Source of the DNA: Cyanidioschyzon merolae
Taxonomy: Eukaryota
DNA: 64,000 bases
Reading direction: 5' to 3' (one strand)
NCBI GenBank assembly: GCA_000091205.1
Contig: AP006502.2
Notes under the pieces: generated by a model
Databases searched by the model: none
What the model was told of the DNA's origin: nothing
What the model saw: only the letters and a program-made list of their open reading frames with translations
Shown: one piece after another, positions 32,821 through 47,749 of the stretch
How the letters are laid out: each line of letters opens with the position of its first letter
Numbering within the stretch: position 1 is the stretch's first letter
Made by a program: the position numbers and the translations under genes

Positions 32821-33494
32821 GTATTGAGCGCAATCAGTGCATGTTCAGGCAAGATTTGCAGCAAAGCAGCACCACTGGGGAACGAGCCGCTGTCCAACGC
32901 TTTGTGAATGCTTGATCAAACGCTTAAATGGCTCAACGAAATGTCGGTGCATGAAGCTGTAGGTGCAGTGTGCAGACCAGCGAGACTCGAAGGGGATTGT
33001 GGTGGCCTCAGTGCAGTTCGCACTCGCATGCGGGGACCCAGCGAGCCTCTATGGCCTTGGAGCAACTGGTACCAACTCTTTACCATCGAGAATCGTGTCG
33101 TTTTTGTTTTGGTGTTGATTTGGGAACCGGGTACCCGACATATTATCCATGTCTTATGCCTGGAGTAAACAAATTCAGAGCCCGCGTCTACGTAACCAGC
33201 CTAGTGCTACCCGAAAATTCTGACAAGCGTCTTTATCGTGTATCAAGAGTTTCCGCACGAGGTTTCCAATGCGCTTTCGGACGGAGAACCGAAGCGATAG
33301 GCGTTCTGGTAGCTGTCGCGGGGGCATCATCGACATATGCTGAAAGAATAGAAACTCTGCTCTGACTAGCAACTCGATAACAGTTTCGTTTGACCTTGAT
33401 TGTAAGCGCAGAAATGGGGAAAAGTTTCAGTATCTCGGAAAGTTTACCTTTTAGGCGGAAGGTCCCGCGAGCCGGACGAGTCTTCGGGGCTAGC

Positions 33495-33930
33495 TAGTGC
33501 TTCATGCTTCCTCCAGTGGCGGGTTCTTTAAAGAAACCTGAGCTACTCGTCCGTAACGCAATTCAATCTGGGACTAGGAGCGTGTATGCTGCGTCTGGGC
33601 GTCGCCCTGGTCGCAGTGGACGCCCAGTATATCGCACCGTGCCGCCGCAGGCAGTGCGTCTCTCTGCGCAGCTTCCAGGCTCCTAGAATGATTAAGTACT
33701 CCGACTCCGTGTCCGATGAACCACGCCTCGAGCCGACGCCCTCAGTGGTATGCCAAAGCCGTTCTGTCTCCGTGCAGCACCTGCTTCGGCGGTATATAAG
33801 CGCTACGGCGGGTGCTCAAAACAGCTAGTCGGCGCACTATAGAACATACGAAACGACCAGTATATCAGAGAGCATGTATGGGTGATAGAACTTGAAGGTA
33901 GATGCTTCATGATGGACGCTTTCCCGAAAG
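33495..33930. repeat. Dispersed ~435-bp repeat family, copy 1 (partner 45250-45685)
   Basis: Shared blocks: gctactcgtccg.a..gca.ttca.tctgggac; cccagtatatcgc; ccgcaggca; gaatgat..gtactccgac.ccgt.tc; gccgttctgtct.cgtgc; acgaaacgac.a.tatatc.gaga; gatgcttca. Roughly 75-80% identity by eye. The short ORFs 33586-33828 and 45340-45540 are homologous translations of this repeat. Confidence 0.6.
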
Positions 33931-39676: not shown

Positions 39677-41006
39677 TGCGCTCGATGCTCTAGGATCGTT
39701 TCCGTGAACCGGGCATCCCCAACATCCGCAATATCGATCGGTACAGAAGCGAACGTCGAATCCTGATGCGTTTCCGGGTGTGCGTCTGTCGCCGTTATTC
39801 ACATGGCGTACACGTGCGACACTACCAGCTGTGCATCATCGGCGTAGATGGTGCTCTCCTGACTGCATGGGATTGCTGCATCCAACCAGGGATCGCTCGA
39901 GTACGCAGGTGCAGTGGATATCCCGGGAAGCGATGAACAAGAGATGACTCGTGACCGAGAGCCAGTGAGGCCTACCTCGTACGCACCGCGAAAGCGCACC
40001 TGCTGATGACAAATAGCGATCATTTAGAAATGATGGGGTCGCGCTCATAAACAGCTGTGTCTAATGCTCGCGGTAAAAAAATGTCAGTACAGGAGCTGGA
40101 ACTCGTGCGAGACTTGATGTCGACGATGTGCCAGGATGCACCTGGGCGTGCGATTTCGTGAAATTGGCGTGCACTGCACCTCTGGAGCGTTCATGCGCTT
40201 CATTTGAAATCAGGCTGGATTGCAACGCCCATGTGAATGTCAGGGATCGACGCGGTGAACACGGTATCGCAAGCTACGCATGCCGTTGCTGGTTCCACGA
40301 TGTGGCGGTGTGTCAGGCGAACGACCACAAGCGCACTCGACGGGCAAAGTTCGCGTCTATCGGTGATACGGCGTACTTGGATCGACTGAGGTTCAGAGCG
40401 AAAGTGCTGACGGTCGTCGACGGAACACAAGCAGCAGCGTGGATGCGACGTATCAACTGCTCAGGCAGCACAGCGCATATCACCACAGGACGTTACGCGC
40501 AAGCAGCGTACACCTAGGGCAGCTTTGCAGCAAGTCGACGTGCCGAACCGCGTTCTATGTGCATGCAGGCGCGTCAAGGCATGGAACGCGCACTCGCTGC
40601 GGAAACGCCCTCTGAATGAGATGAGGCAGCCCGCATACTTGGGCATGTCAAGGGAGGCCATCGGTGGCCTCATTCGTGGCCTCGCCTACGCTATATTCTG
40701 CAAAACGTACTGTGGATGTGGATGTCGATCCGCTTCCGCAAGTCCCGCTGGACGCCCGACATTCCCAGATGGCGGAATGTCCTGCTCGGTTGTCGGGCTC
40801 GTGCACTTCAGATGATCACCGGTCGGAAAGTTGTGCATTGTGGTTCTTGATGCACTGTACATCGGACGCTACACGCTCGTTGGCACCGAGAACCTGGCCC
40901 CATCGCGTGCCGTCGGCGCCTCTCGCTGACCAGTATACGTATCTATTCCGCGAGGCGCTTGCCGCACCGACACCGTCTAGCCGGCTTCGAGAAGCGCTTC
41001 GGGAAT

Positions 41007-42896
41007 TCAAATGGCTGAACGCGAACGGTCCACAGACTCTTGATCCGGAGCTTGTCGCTGCTCCATCCACTGAATATACGCTGTCTGTTGCTTGCTGTGC
41101 TCCACAATGTCCGGGAAGCGGAGCCCAACCTGCAGCTCATCTTGAGGGCACCGAGCCCGCTCAACAAGAACAACAACTGTATCAGGCACGTCCAGCATCG
41201 CTTGCCAGCCATCCGTTGCGTTCACGGAGAAGAGGCCGCCCCAGACACTTCGTTGCTGATGCATGACCACGAATTCCAGCTGCAAACGAATATCCTCCGG
41301 CTCGCGTTCCAGCCCTGGTCGATGCTCGAGTTTCACAAGCAGACCTCGAGACTCGGATCGCGCCAGTGGCCCCGCATGCGCAGCGACTCCATCGCTGGGG
41401 GTCGGGCGTTGCGCCCGAGGCGGCGTCTTCCTGTCAGGTATCCGCGGCGAACGCGTTGCGTCCCAGGAGCAGGCATCCATCCATTGAACTTGCCACCGCA
41501 AACCGCATACCTTCAACGTGCCGGGAACACGGGCCCATGCAAATGGTGGTAGCACCGCACATTTCAGCGGTATAGGTGCTTGGTCCTCGGGAAGCGCCAC
41601 CAACATCGTAGTACCAGCGGATTCGCTCCACGCACTGCATACCGCGTCGGATGCATCTATGACGGAGAGCGCGCTCAGCGCTTCCCAGCGCTCTTTCCAT
41701 TCCTGGTGTGCACGTAAGAGCGACTCAGCGCTGCTGGGGAGGGCGTGTGCGCGCTCCGCATAATGCCCTGCAATGTCCTGACGATACGCCAGCAGGCGAC
41801 GTTCCATGTCGCGGAGTAACCGCCGCAGATGCATACGCATGTCCACGAGACGCGTACGTGCTGCCTGCTGGGACTGGATCCGCTGCTGGACCTGGGTATC
41901 GATCTGCTCGAGCACGGAATCCATGAAACGTTGAATACGCTGGGAAAGCGCTTCACGCTGCCGCAGAAAGAATCGAGATGTCTGCTCGTACTCGAGCAGT
42001 TGGCATTCGAAACGCTGAAGGCGCTCGCGAAGCGGTTGCAAACCCTGCTCTAGCTCAGATGCCAAACTTTGGAGTCGCTCGTGGGCGCGTTCCAGCGGAT
42101 GGTAGCGATGCTCGCACTCGGGCAGCGGAGCACAGCACTCCGCACATATGAAGCGATTGCAGCGTTGGCAGTAATACCGCACAGCTTCATGAGCGTGGAC
42201 CGAGCAGCACCATAATGTTGCCTTCAGCGCTGACAGGGATCGCGGTGCACCTGGATTCTTTTCCGCTGGCTGCTCTGGCAGCGCCAGTTTCGGGCCTCGG
42301 CGGATGTTCTGCAGCAGCTCGCGGAGACAACGCACCAGCACCAGTTCGTGACGAGCAACGGGCTGTCGACAGTGTGGACACGGTTGTGTGCTCGCGATAC
42401 GACGGTGTCCCTGCGACGACGCCGTGCTGGGCTCTCGCCACCACTTCGTCGCACACCGTTCGCAAAACAAGACCCCGCACGAAGGACAGAGAAGCGGCTC
42501 GCGAGGGAGCTCAGCGCAAATAAGGCAGTTCAAATGGTGTTCAAGTTGTGTCGTCCAGGGGTTTGCGTTCGTCGAGGTCACAGGCGGCTGCCCCGTCGCG
42601 TTCAGGTCGGTGGGGTGTACCTCCTCGAGGGCCAGGCACTGCTCGCTCGGCTGTGAAAGAACGGTACCAGACGACCTGTCCCCTCTTTCTTCCACTCTAC
42701 ATAAACGTGCTAGCTGTGCAACAAGTTGCATCCAATCAAGCGACTCGGGTGTGCGGTCTGGGGCGAGCTCCTCGCTGTCGGCGCTCAGCGGTGGGCTGCC
42801 CGCTCTCGGCGACACCAGCCCACTCAGTGCTGTGTCGCTGAGCCGGTCGTCACCGACAGAGCATTCCAACGACGACAGGTCCGTATCACTGTCCAT
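41007..42896 (-). CDS. RING finger / B-box / coiled-coil (TRIM-like) putative E3 ubiquitin ligase
   Basis: 629 aa. RING-like CLICAELPREPLLCPSCGVLFCERC...CPHCRQPV; B-box-like WCCSVHAHEAVRYYCQRCNRFICAECC; then a heptad-rich coiled-coil segment. Confidence 0.6.
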   Translation of the reverse strand: MDSDTDLSSLECSVGDDRLSDTALSGLVSPRAGSPPLSADSEELAPDRTPESLDWMQLVAQLARLCRVEERGDRSSGTVLSQPSEQCLALEEVHPTDLNATGQPPVTSTNANPWTTQLEHHLNCLICAELPREPLLCPSCGVLFCERCATKWWREPSTASSQGHRRIASTQPCPHCRQPVARHELVLVRCLRELLQNIRRGPKLALPEQPAEKNPGAPRSLSALKATLWCCSVHAHEAVRYYCQRCNRFICAECCAPLPECEHRYHPLERAHERLQSLASELEQGLQPLRERLQRFECQLLEYEQTSRFFLRQREALSQRIQRFMDSVLEQIDTQVQQRIQSQQAARTRLVDMRMHLRRLLRDMERRLLAYRQDIAGHYAERAHALPSSAESLLRAHQEWKERWEALSALSVIDASDAVCSAWSESAGTTMLVALPEDQAPIPLKCAVLPPFAWARVPGTLKVCGLRWQVQWMDACSWDATRSPRIPDRKTPPRAQRPTPSDGVAAHAGPLARSESRGLLVKLEHRPGLEREPEDIRLQLEFVVMHQQRSVWGGLFSVNATDGWQAMLDVPDTVVVLVERARCPQDELQVGLRFPDIVEHSKQQTAYIQWMEQRQAPDQESVDRSRSAI

Positions 42897-43055
42897 CAGG
42901 TAGAGTGGGAGCCTGACGGGCTGTTTGCCGCACCAAGCGACGTTCTAAACTCGAACGACGTCGGGCGTGTACAGTAGTGGCGAACCGTACGCCCTGGACA
43001 AGAAGTCTTCAACCGAGGTGCAGACGCCTCCCCGTCTTTTTGGACCGGCTACCTA

Positions 43056-44669
43056 CTACTGATTCCAATTTTTCTCATATAATTCAACTTTTAGAGGTTG
43101 TCTACTAAAGTTCTCTCTTGTCCATTCTGGAGGTCTTTTCTCCAGCACCGCACATTTCCCTATATTGACAGCGGCGTTAACGTCACGGTTCACAAACTCC
43201 ATCCGTTTCTTGCCATCACTGGTTGTACTTCCTAATGCAAGTAGTCCACGAACTTTCGACATCCTTTCCATATGCTCTTCCGTCAGCGGTCCATACCTTT
43301 TTATATCCTCAGGGCTCCTCTGGCACTTTTCTATCCCGACCCCTTGAAGTGTGCACGCCACTTCATGGTGTGTATACGATGTGCGAACCTCACCTACAAG
43401 TATTGTAACGAAACGCCTTGCGCACTCCGTGTACGTTCTCGTCGTTGGAGCTGGTGTAGTTCCTTTTTGGGTCATCCAGTGTCCTGCTCCGTATGTTGCT
43501 ACGAGCCTCTGACCTTCATTCCCCTTCAAGGCGCTCAACTCATTGAAAAAATTCGCGAACGCCCCCTGCTTCCCACAATACAAATTCATTCGCAAACGAG
43601 CCCACCGGGGCTTGGCATACTCCTCCCACAGCGCATCCCAATGAGCGACGCGAACTTCCATAAACTCCCGAAAAGCTTTAAAATCCGCTCCTCGGCTTGT
43701 CACCTCGCTCAAAGCTTCCAGGTGCTCGTTCATTCCTGAATTCCACGTCTCTATTTTCTTCCTTGCATTCATGATTCCCGATTCTCGATAGTATCTCGCT
43801 CTCGAGAACCTCAAAAGACGCATGTCTTTCTGACGTAAGTTACCATCAGTGCCATCTTTCGCACGCTTCGGTGCTGCGATGGTTATGATATTTGTGCTTC
43901 CTGGGTCCGCACCAACGGCAAATTCGTTATCCTGCACTTTCTGCGTCTCAGGACCCGCCTCTTTTTTTTCTTCATGCTTTACCGCGTCAACGACGAAGTC
44001 GTTATCCTCCACCTCTTGCGTCGCAGGATCTGCCTCCTTCTCATCTTCATCCTTCGTCACGTCAACGACGAGGTCGTTATCCTGTACTTTCTGCATCGCA
44101 GGTTCCGCATCCTTCCCATCTTCATCCTTCGTCACGTCAACGACGAGGTCGTTATCCTGTACTTTCTGCATCGCAGGTTCCGCCTCCTTCTCATCTTCAT
44201 GGTTCGCCGAGGGCGGAACTGGACGATCTGTCTTCAACTGCCGATAGTGTACACACAACGCTACTCCATCGGTTTCGATCATCCTAGTGAACAACTTTTG
44301 TTTGCTCACTTTGAGACGTTTGAAATCGAAGATATTCTTCCAGTACGCCTCCTGGTTTTCACCGGAGAACTCCTTCCTGCTAACATTGAACTCCAGACTG
44401 ATCTCCTTAAAGATGCCGTAAAGGACGCCGGAGGCGATACTCAAAAAATGTGACTTGATGTTGTACATTGGAACCACGTTGAAGCGCTTACCCATCAGGA
44501 ACGCCTTCCGTCTCTCCCACTCTTTATTTGTCTCCTCACGCAGCTTCATCTCTGCCTTGCGTTCGAGCTCTCGGTCCAGAAACACGAAATAGCGCAGGAC
44601 GAGGCAATAGTATCTTTCCTTATGTTTTTTCAACTCTGATATCTTGTCTGTTGGATTCGCCAACCCCAA
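43056..44669 (-). CDS. Fanzor/TnpB-like RNA-guided RuvC-fold endonuclease (eukaryotic OMEGA-type nuclease)
   Basis: 537 aa. RuvC-I-like [16 protein letters not shown] (Asp); Fanzor-typical segment [15 protein letters not shown]...W after RuvC-I; RuvC-II/zinc-finger region [15 protein letters not shown]...C; Ruv[25 protein letters not shown] (the DxNAAxNI hallmark of TnpB/Cas12/Fanzor). The N-terminal part carries ~3.7 in-frame 25-aa tandem repeats. Confidence 0.7.
43919..44198. repeat. In-frame 75-bp tandem repeat (~3.7 units) inside the Fanzor-like CDS
   Basis: Plus-strand units gtcaacgacgaggtcgttatcctgtactttctgcatcgcaggttccgc.tcctt..catcttcatccttcgtcac. They encode [28 protein letters not shown]-type repeats just upstream of the RuvC-I motif. 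Confidence 0.85.
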
Positions 44670-45249
44670 GACTGCACGATGCTCTCGTATAACCGCACGG
44701 ATGACAGAAGCTTCATTCGTGCTCCTGCGTGACGCCTTCTCATAGACGAATTCGATCTCCTGCTCATGCTGGCGATCGTTCGTGATGCCATTGATAATCG
44801 TCTATATCCTCTTGGGAGAGATGCCCGGGTAGAGTGCAAACACGGCGCGTATCATGAGACGTTCGAGGTTCATTGTCAAATCGTTCATCAGGTTTCTGAG
44901 GTACTTTTCGCCCCGTAGTTGTAAATATTCCCGTCATCCTTGTATCGAGTACCGTTGGGGCGGGATTCTGCGTAATTTTAGTGCAGGGCATGCACTCGCT
45001 CATTTCTCCTCGACGTTTCCCTCGTACCAAGCATCAGGTGACGAATATAGGTCTTGTCGAAGAACTCGTCCGGAACCTCGACCGTTTCCATGTGCGTCAC
45101 GTCGCGATACATCTCCCTTACCAATTGCATCAGTCCTGACGACGCCTTTACAATACTCTTGGAGTACGAATCGACACGGTTTCTGATCGCATCTCGCAAC
45201 TTTTCCTTGTACGGATCCTTGATATGTGCAAGAAGGTTCCCCAGGCTTG

Positions 45250-45685
45250 TGGTTCATGCTCCCCCATTGTCTAGTGTTATCGTGAGATCTAAGCTACTCG
45301 TCCGCAGTGCAGTTCATTCTGGGACCGTGAACGGGATCATTGGGCGTAACGCTGGTCCCAGTTGACTCCCAGTATATCGCTTCACTGCCGCAGGCAATGA
45401 GTCTATCTTTACAGTTTGCAGGCTCCCAGAATAATGATGTACTCCGACCCCGTATCGAGTGGGTCACCCCTCGAGCCGGCGCCATCTGTGGTACGGCAAC
45501 GCCGTTCTGTCTGCGTGCGGCGACCGCATCGGCGCTTTAGGCGCCATTGCGCACTACCAGGGCAAGCAATCGGCACACGATTGAACGTACGAAACGACGA
45601 TTATATCCGAGAAGGAGTACGGATAATGTTACTTGGAAGTAGGGTATGGATCGATGGATGCTTCACCGCGCACTGAAACAAAGAA
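45250..45685. repeat. Dispersed ~435-bp repeat family, copy 2 (partner 33495-33930)
   Basis: See copy 1. Lies ~600 bp 5' of the Fanzor-like ORF start on the same side. Confidence 0.6.
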
Positions 45686-47749
45686 CAACGAAAAGAAAAG
45701 GCGTACAATCGGAGAAGGTTGGCCTCTGAAAGTGTGTTGTCAACTAAAAAAACTTCCATGCGCCAAGCAAGGCGATGCGGTAAGTTCGTTCGGACACAGC
45801 TACGCATTGATCAAGGTGGCAAGAGAGAATGGTGCTGTAGCCGGTTCGTGTGCGGAAGTTGCGTTCGGTCTGGTCCCTGCGGATTTGAGGACAGTGTCCC
45901 TTCATTACCGCTCGTAGGGACGGTGTGGAAACTTCACTTGATGTGGCTTGATTTATCGAATTTCTTAGAGAACATCCGGTAGGGAGTGGATTGATTACAA
46001 GTCAGTCTTGTAGAGAGCGTTGGCTACGTTCTGTTTTGGGTATGTGTATGTGATGTACAGGATAGGGAATACTGGGCATGTGCTTCATTCACTTGCTGAC
46101 CGTAAAATGACTAATTCGTAAACTTCATACCTGTTTTGCATGCGAGCACTAAGATCTTCACATCATTCCGCAACGTGTCTGCGATCGACCGAAAGCATGC
46201 TTTCAAGTACCTGCATGAGAAACAAAATAAAACGGATTGCGCCGGCACACGAGGTCCAGAGTTCACTGGTACGCGTATCGAGAGAACACAACGCAGGCGC
46301 TGTACCAAGGAGATTAAAATGGAACATTGACCTGCGTTCTCTGTCCTTACGTTTTGGTGATTCGCAAGTTTCTTATCCGATCTACAGCCTCGATATTCCA
46401 AGTGCAGCAATAGGGGATTCCACATTCACATCTCGTTCTAGGATTTTCGGCGGTGGTTTCGAAGTGGCTGCATCGACGCAGCCCCGCTCGAATGCATTCG
46501 ATCACCGGCATCACGGGGATTTGTGGCGTCCTCTCAAATAGATTCCTACAGAACCGATACGATTGTCTATTTCATGGGTGCGAGCCTCGGTTCTTTCCCT
46601 GACTTTACGTACAGGACGCACAAACCATGCATTCTTCAAGATTTCGATCTCACTCTTTCAAGGCAACACCTAAGCAGAACGACATGCTTCCCGAGGGTGA
46701 TGAGAAAAAGAATATGGCTTCGTCCTTTGAGTACTTGTTCACAAGCTCCTGCCAAAAGTTCATGGAACTTCTTGCGTCAAATAATCGATTCCATTCGAAC
46801 GACAAAGCCCATTTTCATCGTTGCAAAAGAGGAACCAGTATTCAACAGCAGCATGCTAATTTACGAGAGGTATACGCCAAGAGGCCCTTGTCTTCAAGCT
46901 TTGCACTAGAGAAAAGTCCTGGACTCGCTGCGCACGCATTATAGCAATCGCTACCACTAGAGGCCGAGTCACCAATTCTGGAAAAGGGAACGTAAGCGGA
47001 TTGCAATGCCTCGACTTGATCTCCGACCTGGATTTTCCGGACGACACTCGTTTCATCATTGACAAAATCGCGTTCCATGAAGCCTTAATCGACAGGAACA
47101 GCTCACGCTTGCTTGCGCAACGGACAGGGTAATTGTCAATGGCCTCACCGAGGAAGAGCCCATGGATGTAGGGTACGACACCTTTGTCTCGCGGACCTAT
47201 GACGGCACTGAGGGTACCGTCTGCACCCGTCATGCGCACGCATCGAGCGATGAAGCCAGCGTTCGCGCGCTCCAAGACGGCTCCCTGAGGCGGACGGCTG
47301 CTGGTCTTATGCGAACCCCTGAGAACAATCAAGTGCCACCGCTGCGAAGGGCGCACAGAAGCTGTATTCAAAGACGCTTGAAGTGTCAAGCGAAGCCTAG
47401 ATCGCAATGACCATGAGTGCATGAAACGCGTCGACAACGCCGGGAATCGGCGTGATCAGAAGTTCAACGCTGCCGTGTACTTCCTTGGGCCTGTGACAAC
47501 GCCACTGGAGGATACAGAGACATCGGCATATTCAGAGCCGGAGCTTAGAGCGCGAGGAAACGGAAGCAGTCACAGAAACAGCGTGCCGCGCTTCGTGTCG
47601 GTGAGAAACGGAAGAAACCAAAACTGTAGAGAGCACATCCGAACTCGCAAACCAGACCTTTTCTATTCATGTCTGACACGAGTGTAACTGCCTGTTTGTG
47701 CTGACCCTGCACGTGTCGCGCTCGAGTCGCTCACGAAAAAGGGAATTTG

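Follow-up and report, generated by a model that had tools for sequence, protein, structure and literature searches.

Bacterial TnpB elements of the IS200/IS605 type (e.g., ISDra2) have no inverted repeats or duplications, carry sub-terminal hairpins, and encode a guide-RNA scaffold that overlaps the 3' end of tnpB and the right end of the element, with the guide read from the flank. In eukaryotic Fanzor1 systems the omega-RNA either overlaps the 3' end of the nuclease open reading frame (ORF) or lies after it, and extends to the right end of the element (PMC10432273, PMC10530073, PMC11423790), and in Chlamydomonas the 3' non-coding region yields a small RNA that forms a ribonucleoprotein (PMC10530073). 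The genome of the alga Cyanidioschyzon merolae contains an interspersed repeat that was reported as a 'novel interspersed repetitive element' of 3.2 kb, with 253 copies making up ~5% of the genome, truncated ORFs, and transcriptional activity at the level of the family (Nozaki et al., 2007; PMC1955436), and that was catalogued as CMe-1A, with ~150 copies of ~3 kb at ~80% identity to the consensus, neither terminal inverted repeats nor target-site duplications, and class unknown (Bao and Jurka, 2013; PMC3627910). Here we analyze a 64,000-nt stretch of C. merolae contig AP006502.2 (the window; GenBank assembly GCA_000091205.1) in which a Fanzor-like gene on the minus strand is followed by a TRIM-like gene, and for which an original prediction had placed a candidate omega-RNA and guide-encoding region at the 3' end of the Fanzor-like gene (42897-43200). 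We find that this region comprises the 3' ~270 nt of a dead copy of CMe-1A and ~30 nt of host flank, and we conclude, with moderate confidence, that the active ancestor of the copy most likely encoded an omega-RNA scaffold in this part of the element.

Three ORFs of the window are identical to annotated proteins of C. merolae strain 10D, encoded on a chromosome of 1.62 Mb. The coordinates on which the prediction was built are correct: the TAG stop codon of the ORF is at 43058-43056, the ATG of the downstream gene is at 42896-42894, and 159 nt lie between them. The 'Fanzor-like' label also holds, at the level of a family profile. Searches of Pfam and of the Protein Data Bank (PDB) with the single protein or with a close-family profile gave no match, and a broader profile was required; the profile of relatives (profile A3) matches the solved Fanzor1 proteins PpFz1 of Parasitella (9CF0; E = 2.5e-19), SpuFz1 of Spizellomyces (8GKH; E = 6.1e-14), and GtFz1 of Guillardia (9CER; E = 1.8e-6). 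In the profile alignment, DPG(R/N)TNI corresponds to DP(N/G) of SpuFz1 and PpFz1, DEFRTS corresponds to DE(Y/F)(K/R)TS, and NRD corresponds to NRD, and the RuvC-I D, RuvC-II E, and RuvC-III D thus occur in the order that marks Fanzor1 homologs; the window copy retains GADPG, GEVRTS, and NRDVNAA. The Cas12f1-like TNB domain (PF07282) is matched by 7 of 14 relatives (best E = 5.9e-7), the more distant ones, and is not matched by the window protein or its close paralogs. Hot-spring metagenomes contain more than 100 relatives of the 537-codon ORF at 60-80% identity; a giant-virus origin was considered and dropped, IMG/VR viral contigs having yielded no relatives. Unlike the solved Fanzor1 proteins, the family lacks the first Cys pair (CxxC) of the Fanzor/TnpB zinc ribbon (window ~43390-43330), and reads THHE (TSYTHHELGC) where PpFz1 has TSSFCPKC and PpFz1 and SpuFz1 have C-P-K/R-C.

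The same organism, a Fanzor1-type ORF, a length of ~3 kb, many copies diverged by ~10-20%, the lack of terminal inverted repeats, and a 5' part held in common with another repeat are features of CMe-1A and of the window element alike, and the window element differs from CMe-1A in no essential way, being one degenerate copy of the family. We thus assign the Fanzor-like gene to CMe-1A, a Fanzor1 repeat that was already known.

To map the right end we used one metagenome scan, which provided 80 paralogous loci representing ~44 distinct insertions in unrelated flanks, ~40 of which define the right end. The results place the right end at ~42925-42933: sequence similarity between insertions continues 120-130 nt beyond the stop codon of the window copy (~60-70 nt beyond the stop codon of the ancestral ORF) and is then lost. 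In blastn comparisons of the window with the 80 loci, similarity begins at 45235/6 on the left and stops at 42927-42997 on the right, and multiple alignments of both ends agree. Near the right end, the alignments read CGCCACTACTGTACAC, then a hairpin, then GCGTTTG(T/G), then a few G/T-rich bases, after which similarity ceases. The element boundary therefore falls within the segment in which it had been predicted, and not upstream of 43056. Among the orthologous contigs of related strains, sought through orthologues of the neighboring gene, no empty site was found, each contig either carrying the insertion or breaking at it.

Three further loci touch on the right end. Two of them (L091:1-113 and L094:1-869) match the window at 100% identity downstream of 42979/42981 and otherwise consist of unrelated sequence, the switch occurring exactly at a conserved 14-mer, CCACTACTGTACAC; these are probably assembly chimeras formed at a repeated k-mer, although they may indicate a right end that is common to other repeat families. 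The third (L047:370-466) carries 97 nt of the 3' module at 88.7% identity to the consensus, without upstream Fanzor coding sequence, and represents a solo right end or else a copy truncated on the 5' side. A search for solo copies of the 3' module returned this fragment and two 51-nt fragments only.

To assess structure in the region next to the right end, we used the family consensus, which has an intact ORF and approximates the active ancestor, divided it into non-overlapping 130-nt windows, and compared the predicted folding energy of each with those of 200 dinucleotide-preserving shuffles. The results indicate that the reconstructed ancestral 3' ~260 nt are the only strongly structured part of the element. 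The consensus of 43063-43192 gives a z-score of -3.04, with 0 of 200 shuffles as stable, and the consensus of the terminal 130 nt (42933-43062) gives z-scores of -4.38 and -4.55 with two alternative versions of the terminal hairpin (V1 and V2, respectively; 0 of 200 shuffles in each case), whereas the 13 other windows, all of them coding, give z-scores from +1.12 to -1.28. The whole 260 nt give a z-score of -3.73. The longest inverted repeat found forms a recurrent long-range helix, with arms at 43061-43046 and 42987-42972, that encloses inner stems. Individual copies fold more strongly than a coding control (mean z-score -1.71 vs. -1.01; Wilcoxon p = 0.010), and the best-preserved copies reach -4.3 to -5.4. 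The folding advantage of the sense strand over the antisense strand is ~3.7 times the asymmetry of the coding controls, which points to a strand-specific structure in RNA or in single-stranded DNA.

The element ends in a strong hairpin. In the V1 version it is CGTCGTTCGA-ctt-TCGAACGGCG; in the V2 version, five substitutions away and in a shifted register, it is ACGTTTTTC-tttt-GAAAGGCGT; in the V3 version, present in two insertions, it is CCGGCGAG...CTCGCCGG; and there is a fourth type, V4. The hairpin is thus kept in at least three versions that differ in sequence but occupy an identical position in independent insertions. Folding of the last 48 nt in 41 copies, which are not independent of one another, gives -17.6 kcal/mol, compared with -9.7 kcal/mol when 48-mers are drawn at random from these contigs (p = 2e-17). 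In the alignment of V1-type hairpins, three pairs have changed on both sides, giving a weak covariation signal (0.141 vs. 0.098; exceeded in 14 of 500 shuffles).

The original prediction had rested on two short palindromes on the minus strand, agacg-gggagg-cgtct (43037-43022) and cgttc-gagttta-gaacg (42957-42941). Both are present, but as evidence they fall away: two perfect 5-bp hairpins in 159 nt compare with 1.53 +/- 1.49 in 2000 dinucleotide shuffles (P = 0.42). The first palindrome has only 4 bp and a mismatch in the family consensus and competes with alternative pairings of two AGAC and two GUCU motifs. The second, at chance level by itself, is a mutated form of the 10-12 bp terminal hairpin that is common to the family, and is in that sense genuine.

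We propose that the ancestral 3' region most likely encoded an omega-RNA because its anatomy matches that of TnpB and Fanzor systems: a structured module that overlaps the 3' end of the ORF, a strong stem-loop, the element boundary a few bases further on, and then the flank. A comparable case is that of SpuFz1, PpFz1, and GtFz1 (PMC10432273, PMC11423790), where a homologous protein with aligned RuvC motifs is likewise accompanied by an RNA region that overlaps the 3' end of the ORF, reaches the right end, and places stem-loops before the flank. According to the proposal, the scaffold would have been encoded by the last ~260 nt of the active ancestor, a stretch that starts with the RuvC-III codons, continues with a dispensable C-terminal tail and ~60 nt of non-coding sequence, and closes with the strong terminal hairpin. 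By analogy with TnpB and Fanzor, the scaffold would have been co-transcribed with the Fanzor mRNA or processed from it, would have associated with the nuclease, and would have been extended by ~20 nt of flanking DNA as guide. At this locus the corresponding guide would be read from the host flank within 42897-42932, again by analogy with TnpB and Fanzor (PMC10432273).

Several results weigh against this proposal. Known Fanzor1 omega-RNAs are 75-150 nt, compared with ~130-260 nt for the candidate, in which the conserved 7-bp SL1 of the solved Fanzor1 omega-RNAs could not be identified. Comparison of 40000-47000 with Rfam 15 (E <= 10) gave three weak unrelated matches, none of them in 42897-43200, although Rfam may hold no model of a Fanzor omega-RNA. 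RNAalifold found no consensus structure in 41 copies, and the pairs of the main fold are kept in 82.4% of cells, compared with 82.3% in shuffles. A scan for helices with double-sided changes found almost none, and an outer helix around the terminal hairpin (CAC-N/N'-GTG) was rejected after failing a permutation test (p = 0.245). Synonymous sites in the candidate region show no excess of conservation, an apparent local rise having vanished upon comparison with the whole ORF (p = 0.84 and 0.49), and the 62 nt after the ancestral stop codon match the consensus less well than do synonymous sites (0.77 vs. 0.85). The fold of the window copy itself is not significant (z-scores of -0.77 for 43063-43192, -1.33 for 42933-43062, and -1.88 for the 260 nt). 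Folding beyond the expectation from composition is a property of the family consensus, and not of the sequence in the window.

The negative results on conservation and covariation have little power, because the phylogeny of the copies is a star: the copies are pseudogenes that have decayed independently, differ pairwise by 18% on average, and in many cases carry stop codons of their own. These results nevertheless provide no positive support. Most of the variation among copies is neutral decay after insertion, which is uninformative about structural selection in either direction. For the same reason, the star shape of the phylogeny, subfamily consensus sequences could not be compared; across families, the only comparison was with a 48%-identical relative (L098), which is present as a single copy and has a 3' region that cannot be aligned.

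One alternative account is that the region has no function and consists of neutrally decaying ex-coding sequence and untranslated region (UTR), in which the palindromes are due to chance and the structure of the consensus is due to a G+U-rich composition. The chance frequency of the palindromes, the lack of a conservation excess, and the lack of covariation in the main body of the fold are what this account predicts, and the sense strand is indeed G/T-rich, the coding controls, too, folding better in sense than in antisense. However, the dinucleotide shuffles control for composition, and in three separate tests 0 of 200 reached the energy of the consensus; all 13 coding windows of the same consensus are ordinary; and separate insertions carry, at one and the same position, hairpins of different sequence. 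The consensus z-scores and the hairpin variants are difficult to reconcile with a neutral origin, which we consider very unlikely.

A stronger alternative to an omega-RNA is that the 3' end is a transposition signal only: a sub-terminal hairpin, read as single-stranded DNA by an unidentified transposase of rolling-circle/Helitron-like or IS200/IS605-like type, together with an ordinary 3' UTR and no guide RNA. The element has neither terminal inverted repeats nor target-site duplications (PMC3627910), and covariation is confined to the hairpin, there being none in the remaining scaffold. As for the sub-terminal hairpins of IS200/IS605 elements, the right-end hairpin is shown, and palindromes occur in the 5' region that is common to full-length copies; CMe-1A differs from those elements in being a eukaryotic nuclear element, without TnpA, and with a protein of the Fanzor1 clade rather than TnpB. 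Green-algal Fanzor1 elements ride on Helitron2 with hairpins at both ends, and the 3' sub-terminal hairpin expected of Helitron2 is present here. A search for the Helitron2 hallmark, an asymmetric terminal inverted repeat in which sequence adjoining the 3' hairpin on its upstream side recurs inverted at the 5' terminus, was however negative for the motif used: with <=3 mismatches allowed, only two scattered weak matches to the inverted form of CCACTACTGTACAC occur in the 2.5 kb upstream of 62 loci. CMe-1A thus differs from the Helitron2-borne Fanzor1 elements of Chlamydomonas in that the asymmetric terminal inverted repeat was not found, and no target-site duplications are known. The 3' ends of the element are not CTRR, and the structured consensus, at ~260 nt, extends far beyond a terminal hairpin. 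We therefore regard a signal without a guide RNA as unlikely, while considering that the terminal hairpin probably doubled as the right-end recognition structure for transposition; recognition of the hairpin by a transposase does not exclude an omega-RNA, because the two roles coexist in TnpB systems.

Close counterparts of CMe-1A are CrFNuc and CRe-1, CRe-2, and CRe-3 of Chlamydomonas reinhardtii (PMC10530073, PMC3627910), which are non-autonomous algal Fanzor1 elements without a transposase. CRe elements and CMe-1A alike have copies that are often 5'-truncated, a 3' hairpin, and a conserved 3' non-coding region; the best green-algal protein match to the window ORF is 39% identical over 45% of the query. 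The SpuFz1 element, in contrast, has 33-bp inverted repeats, and CMe-1A has none.

The left end was approached through full-length paralogs (L009, L012, L013, L017, and others), which have an extra 5' region extending ~450 nt upstream of the equivalent of 45235 and containing an ATG, a basic N-terminus, and the palindromes GCGCTCAgTGAGCGC and CCTGggagatCAGG. A left end with a fixed flanking motif was not found among these paralogs, the upstream sequences of which split into at least four unrelated groups.

The window copy itself is a pseudogene and a relic of the known element. Its apparent stop codon results from a frameshift (Table 1); with the extra A of the paralogs, the frame reads on as ...EKKLEAVVGGRSKKTGRRLHVSWRRFV* and ends at 42996-42994. 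The statement in the original prediction that the segment after the stop codon is not coding is therefore true of this copy, but ~43055-42994 once belonged to a longer ancestral ORF, of which it is a remnant put out of frame. Within that remnant, the ancestral frame carries a TGG-to-TGA change at 43011-43009. Further in-frame stop codons include one at 44804-44802, where the paralogs have Trp, and additional stop codons and a frame change follow upstream, in 44802-45236. At 45235 the element's own 5' ~550 nt, which contain the palindromes, the ATG, and ~60 N-terminal codons, have been replaced by an unrelated repeat, so that the locus holds no intact, expressible Fanzor1 gene. Because the copy is a pseudogene with a degraded fold, a functional pair of omega-RNA and nuclease at this locus is unlikely. 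We conclude that the locus is a relic of both partners and not a working guide-RNA gene.

Table 1. Features in and around the 3' end of the CMe-1A copy (window coordinates).
Feature	Position	Strand	Remarks
TRIM-like host gene BAM83315.1	41007-42896	-	annotated 'similar to glycogenin-interacting protein'; RING, B-box, coiled coil; outside the element
Final bases of the element (to ~42925), then host flank	42897-42932	-	similarity between insertions ends here; 5' leader of the TRIM-like gene
Retained body of the CMe-1A-type Fanzor1 element	42925-45235	-	5'-truncated or recombined at 45235; right end ~42925-42933
Candidate omega-RNA scaffold, downstream half	42933-43062	-	long-range helix, inner stems, CGCCACTACTGTACAC (42982-42967), terminal hairpin
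Terminal (right-end) hairpin	42937-42962	-	includes the second palindrome (42957-42941); derived by decay from the V1 hairpin of the family
Ex-coding tail of the ancestral ORF	42994-43055	-	consensus stop codon TAG at 42996-42994, CAG here
First palindrome, agacg-gggagg-cgtct	43022-43037	-	codons K-T-G-R-R-L in intact paralogs
Longest open stretch (537 codons) of the degenerate Fanzor1 gene	43056-44669	-	RuvC-I GADPG, DE(F/V)RTS motif, RuvC-III NRDVNAA
Candidate omega-RNA scaffold, upstream half	43063-43192	-	overlaps the last conserved codons, NRDFNAAINI...RPPE
A-run one base shorter than in all paralogs	43069-43073	-	frameshift creating the apparent stop codon 43056-43058
Unrelated repeat (repeat X) in place of the element's 5' ~550 nt	45245-45663	-	second copy at 33493-33921

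The end of the ancestral ORF behaves less like protein-coding sequence than the remainder. The ex-coding tail lies past the C-terminus of the solved Fanzor1 proteins and has no codon-position signature, and over the last 43 codons conservation at codon positions 1 and 2 drops from 0.92 to 0.88 (p = 8e-5). A TAG directly after ...RPPE (equivalent to window ~43128), near the protein ends of SpuFz1 and PpFz1, occurs in many independent copies (L013, L017, L020, L024, L053, L055, and L079). The 37-residue tail past RPPE may at no time have contributed to protein function, and looks like read-through across a nucleic-acid feature.

The position of the right end also bears on the neighboring host gene, BAM83315.1, in which the RING and B-box domain matches are weak. 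The distance from the right end of the element to the ATG of the gene is 29-37 nt, in the same orientation, in every orthologous contig, and the promoter or 5' UTR of BAM83315.1 must therefore sit within the element or read through it. It follows that the 'intergenic' DNA before the gene is mostly transposon tail, a point that bears on the annotation of promoter and 5' UTR. A further explanation of the region, compatible with the others, is co-option: the 3' end of the element would now serve the TRIM-like gene as promoter or 5' UTR. The shared orientation, the short distance to the ATG, and the reported transcription of the repeat family (PMC1955436) fit such a role, as does the presence of the arrangement in all orthologous contigs recovered, at 97.5-100% identity; yet the junction is no more conserved than the remainder of the locus, and an old insertion is expected to be fixed among near-identical strains whatever its function. 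Co-option is, in our judgment, doubtful.

Three observations concern the wider element and its relatives. First, the two copies of the ~430-nt repeat X in the window are 70% identical, and repeat X abuts the Fanzor body at 45235 exactly as it does in loci L035/L036, L062, and L071; the combination looks like a propagated composite subfamily, and is probably the combination of TE-N2_CMe and CMe-1A of Bao and Jurka. Second, the Fanzor ORF contains a tandem array of a 75-nt unit (43913-44200; 3.8 copies, 84% matches) that encodes acidic 25-residue repeats directly before RuvC-I and that varies in copy number among paralogs. Third, a distant Fanzor relative (P0106; 33% identical; L100:378-1130) lies directly downstream of a DDE_3/Tc3-type transposase gene, and its branch, unlike CMe-1A, rides on a Mariner/Tc1-like element.

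Both the family and the general principle of a Fanzor nuclease with an omega-RNA were already known. The present analysis adds the mapped right end, the terminal hairpin with its variants, and the structured consensus of the 3' ~260 nt; in the literature that we searched, none of these is described for CMe-1A, nor is an omega-RNA. We suggest tentatively, as a possible description of the family, that CMe-1A is a transposase-less, hairpin-ended Fanzor1 element, the last ~130-260 nt of which would constitute an unusually long, previously undescribed omega-RNA in which the guide-adjacent stem is the right-end hairpin. If so, the intact consensus could be resurrected as a pair of Fanzor1 and guide RNA from an alga that lives at 45 C and pH 1.5, and the arrangement may explain how a repeat that makes up ~5% of the genome has spread without a recognizable transposase.

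At this locus, the 'gene plus guide' is a fossil. For the organism, the finding matters in that C. merolae has one of the simplest eukaryotic genomes and yet devotes ~5% of it to this one repeat. Should the right end encode a guide RNA for Fanzor, the repeat would be tied to RNA-guided homing, and reconstruction from the consensus would offer a Fanzor1 system adapted to heat and acid.

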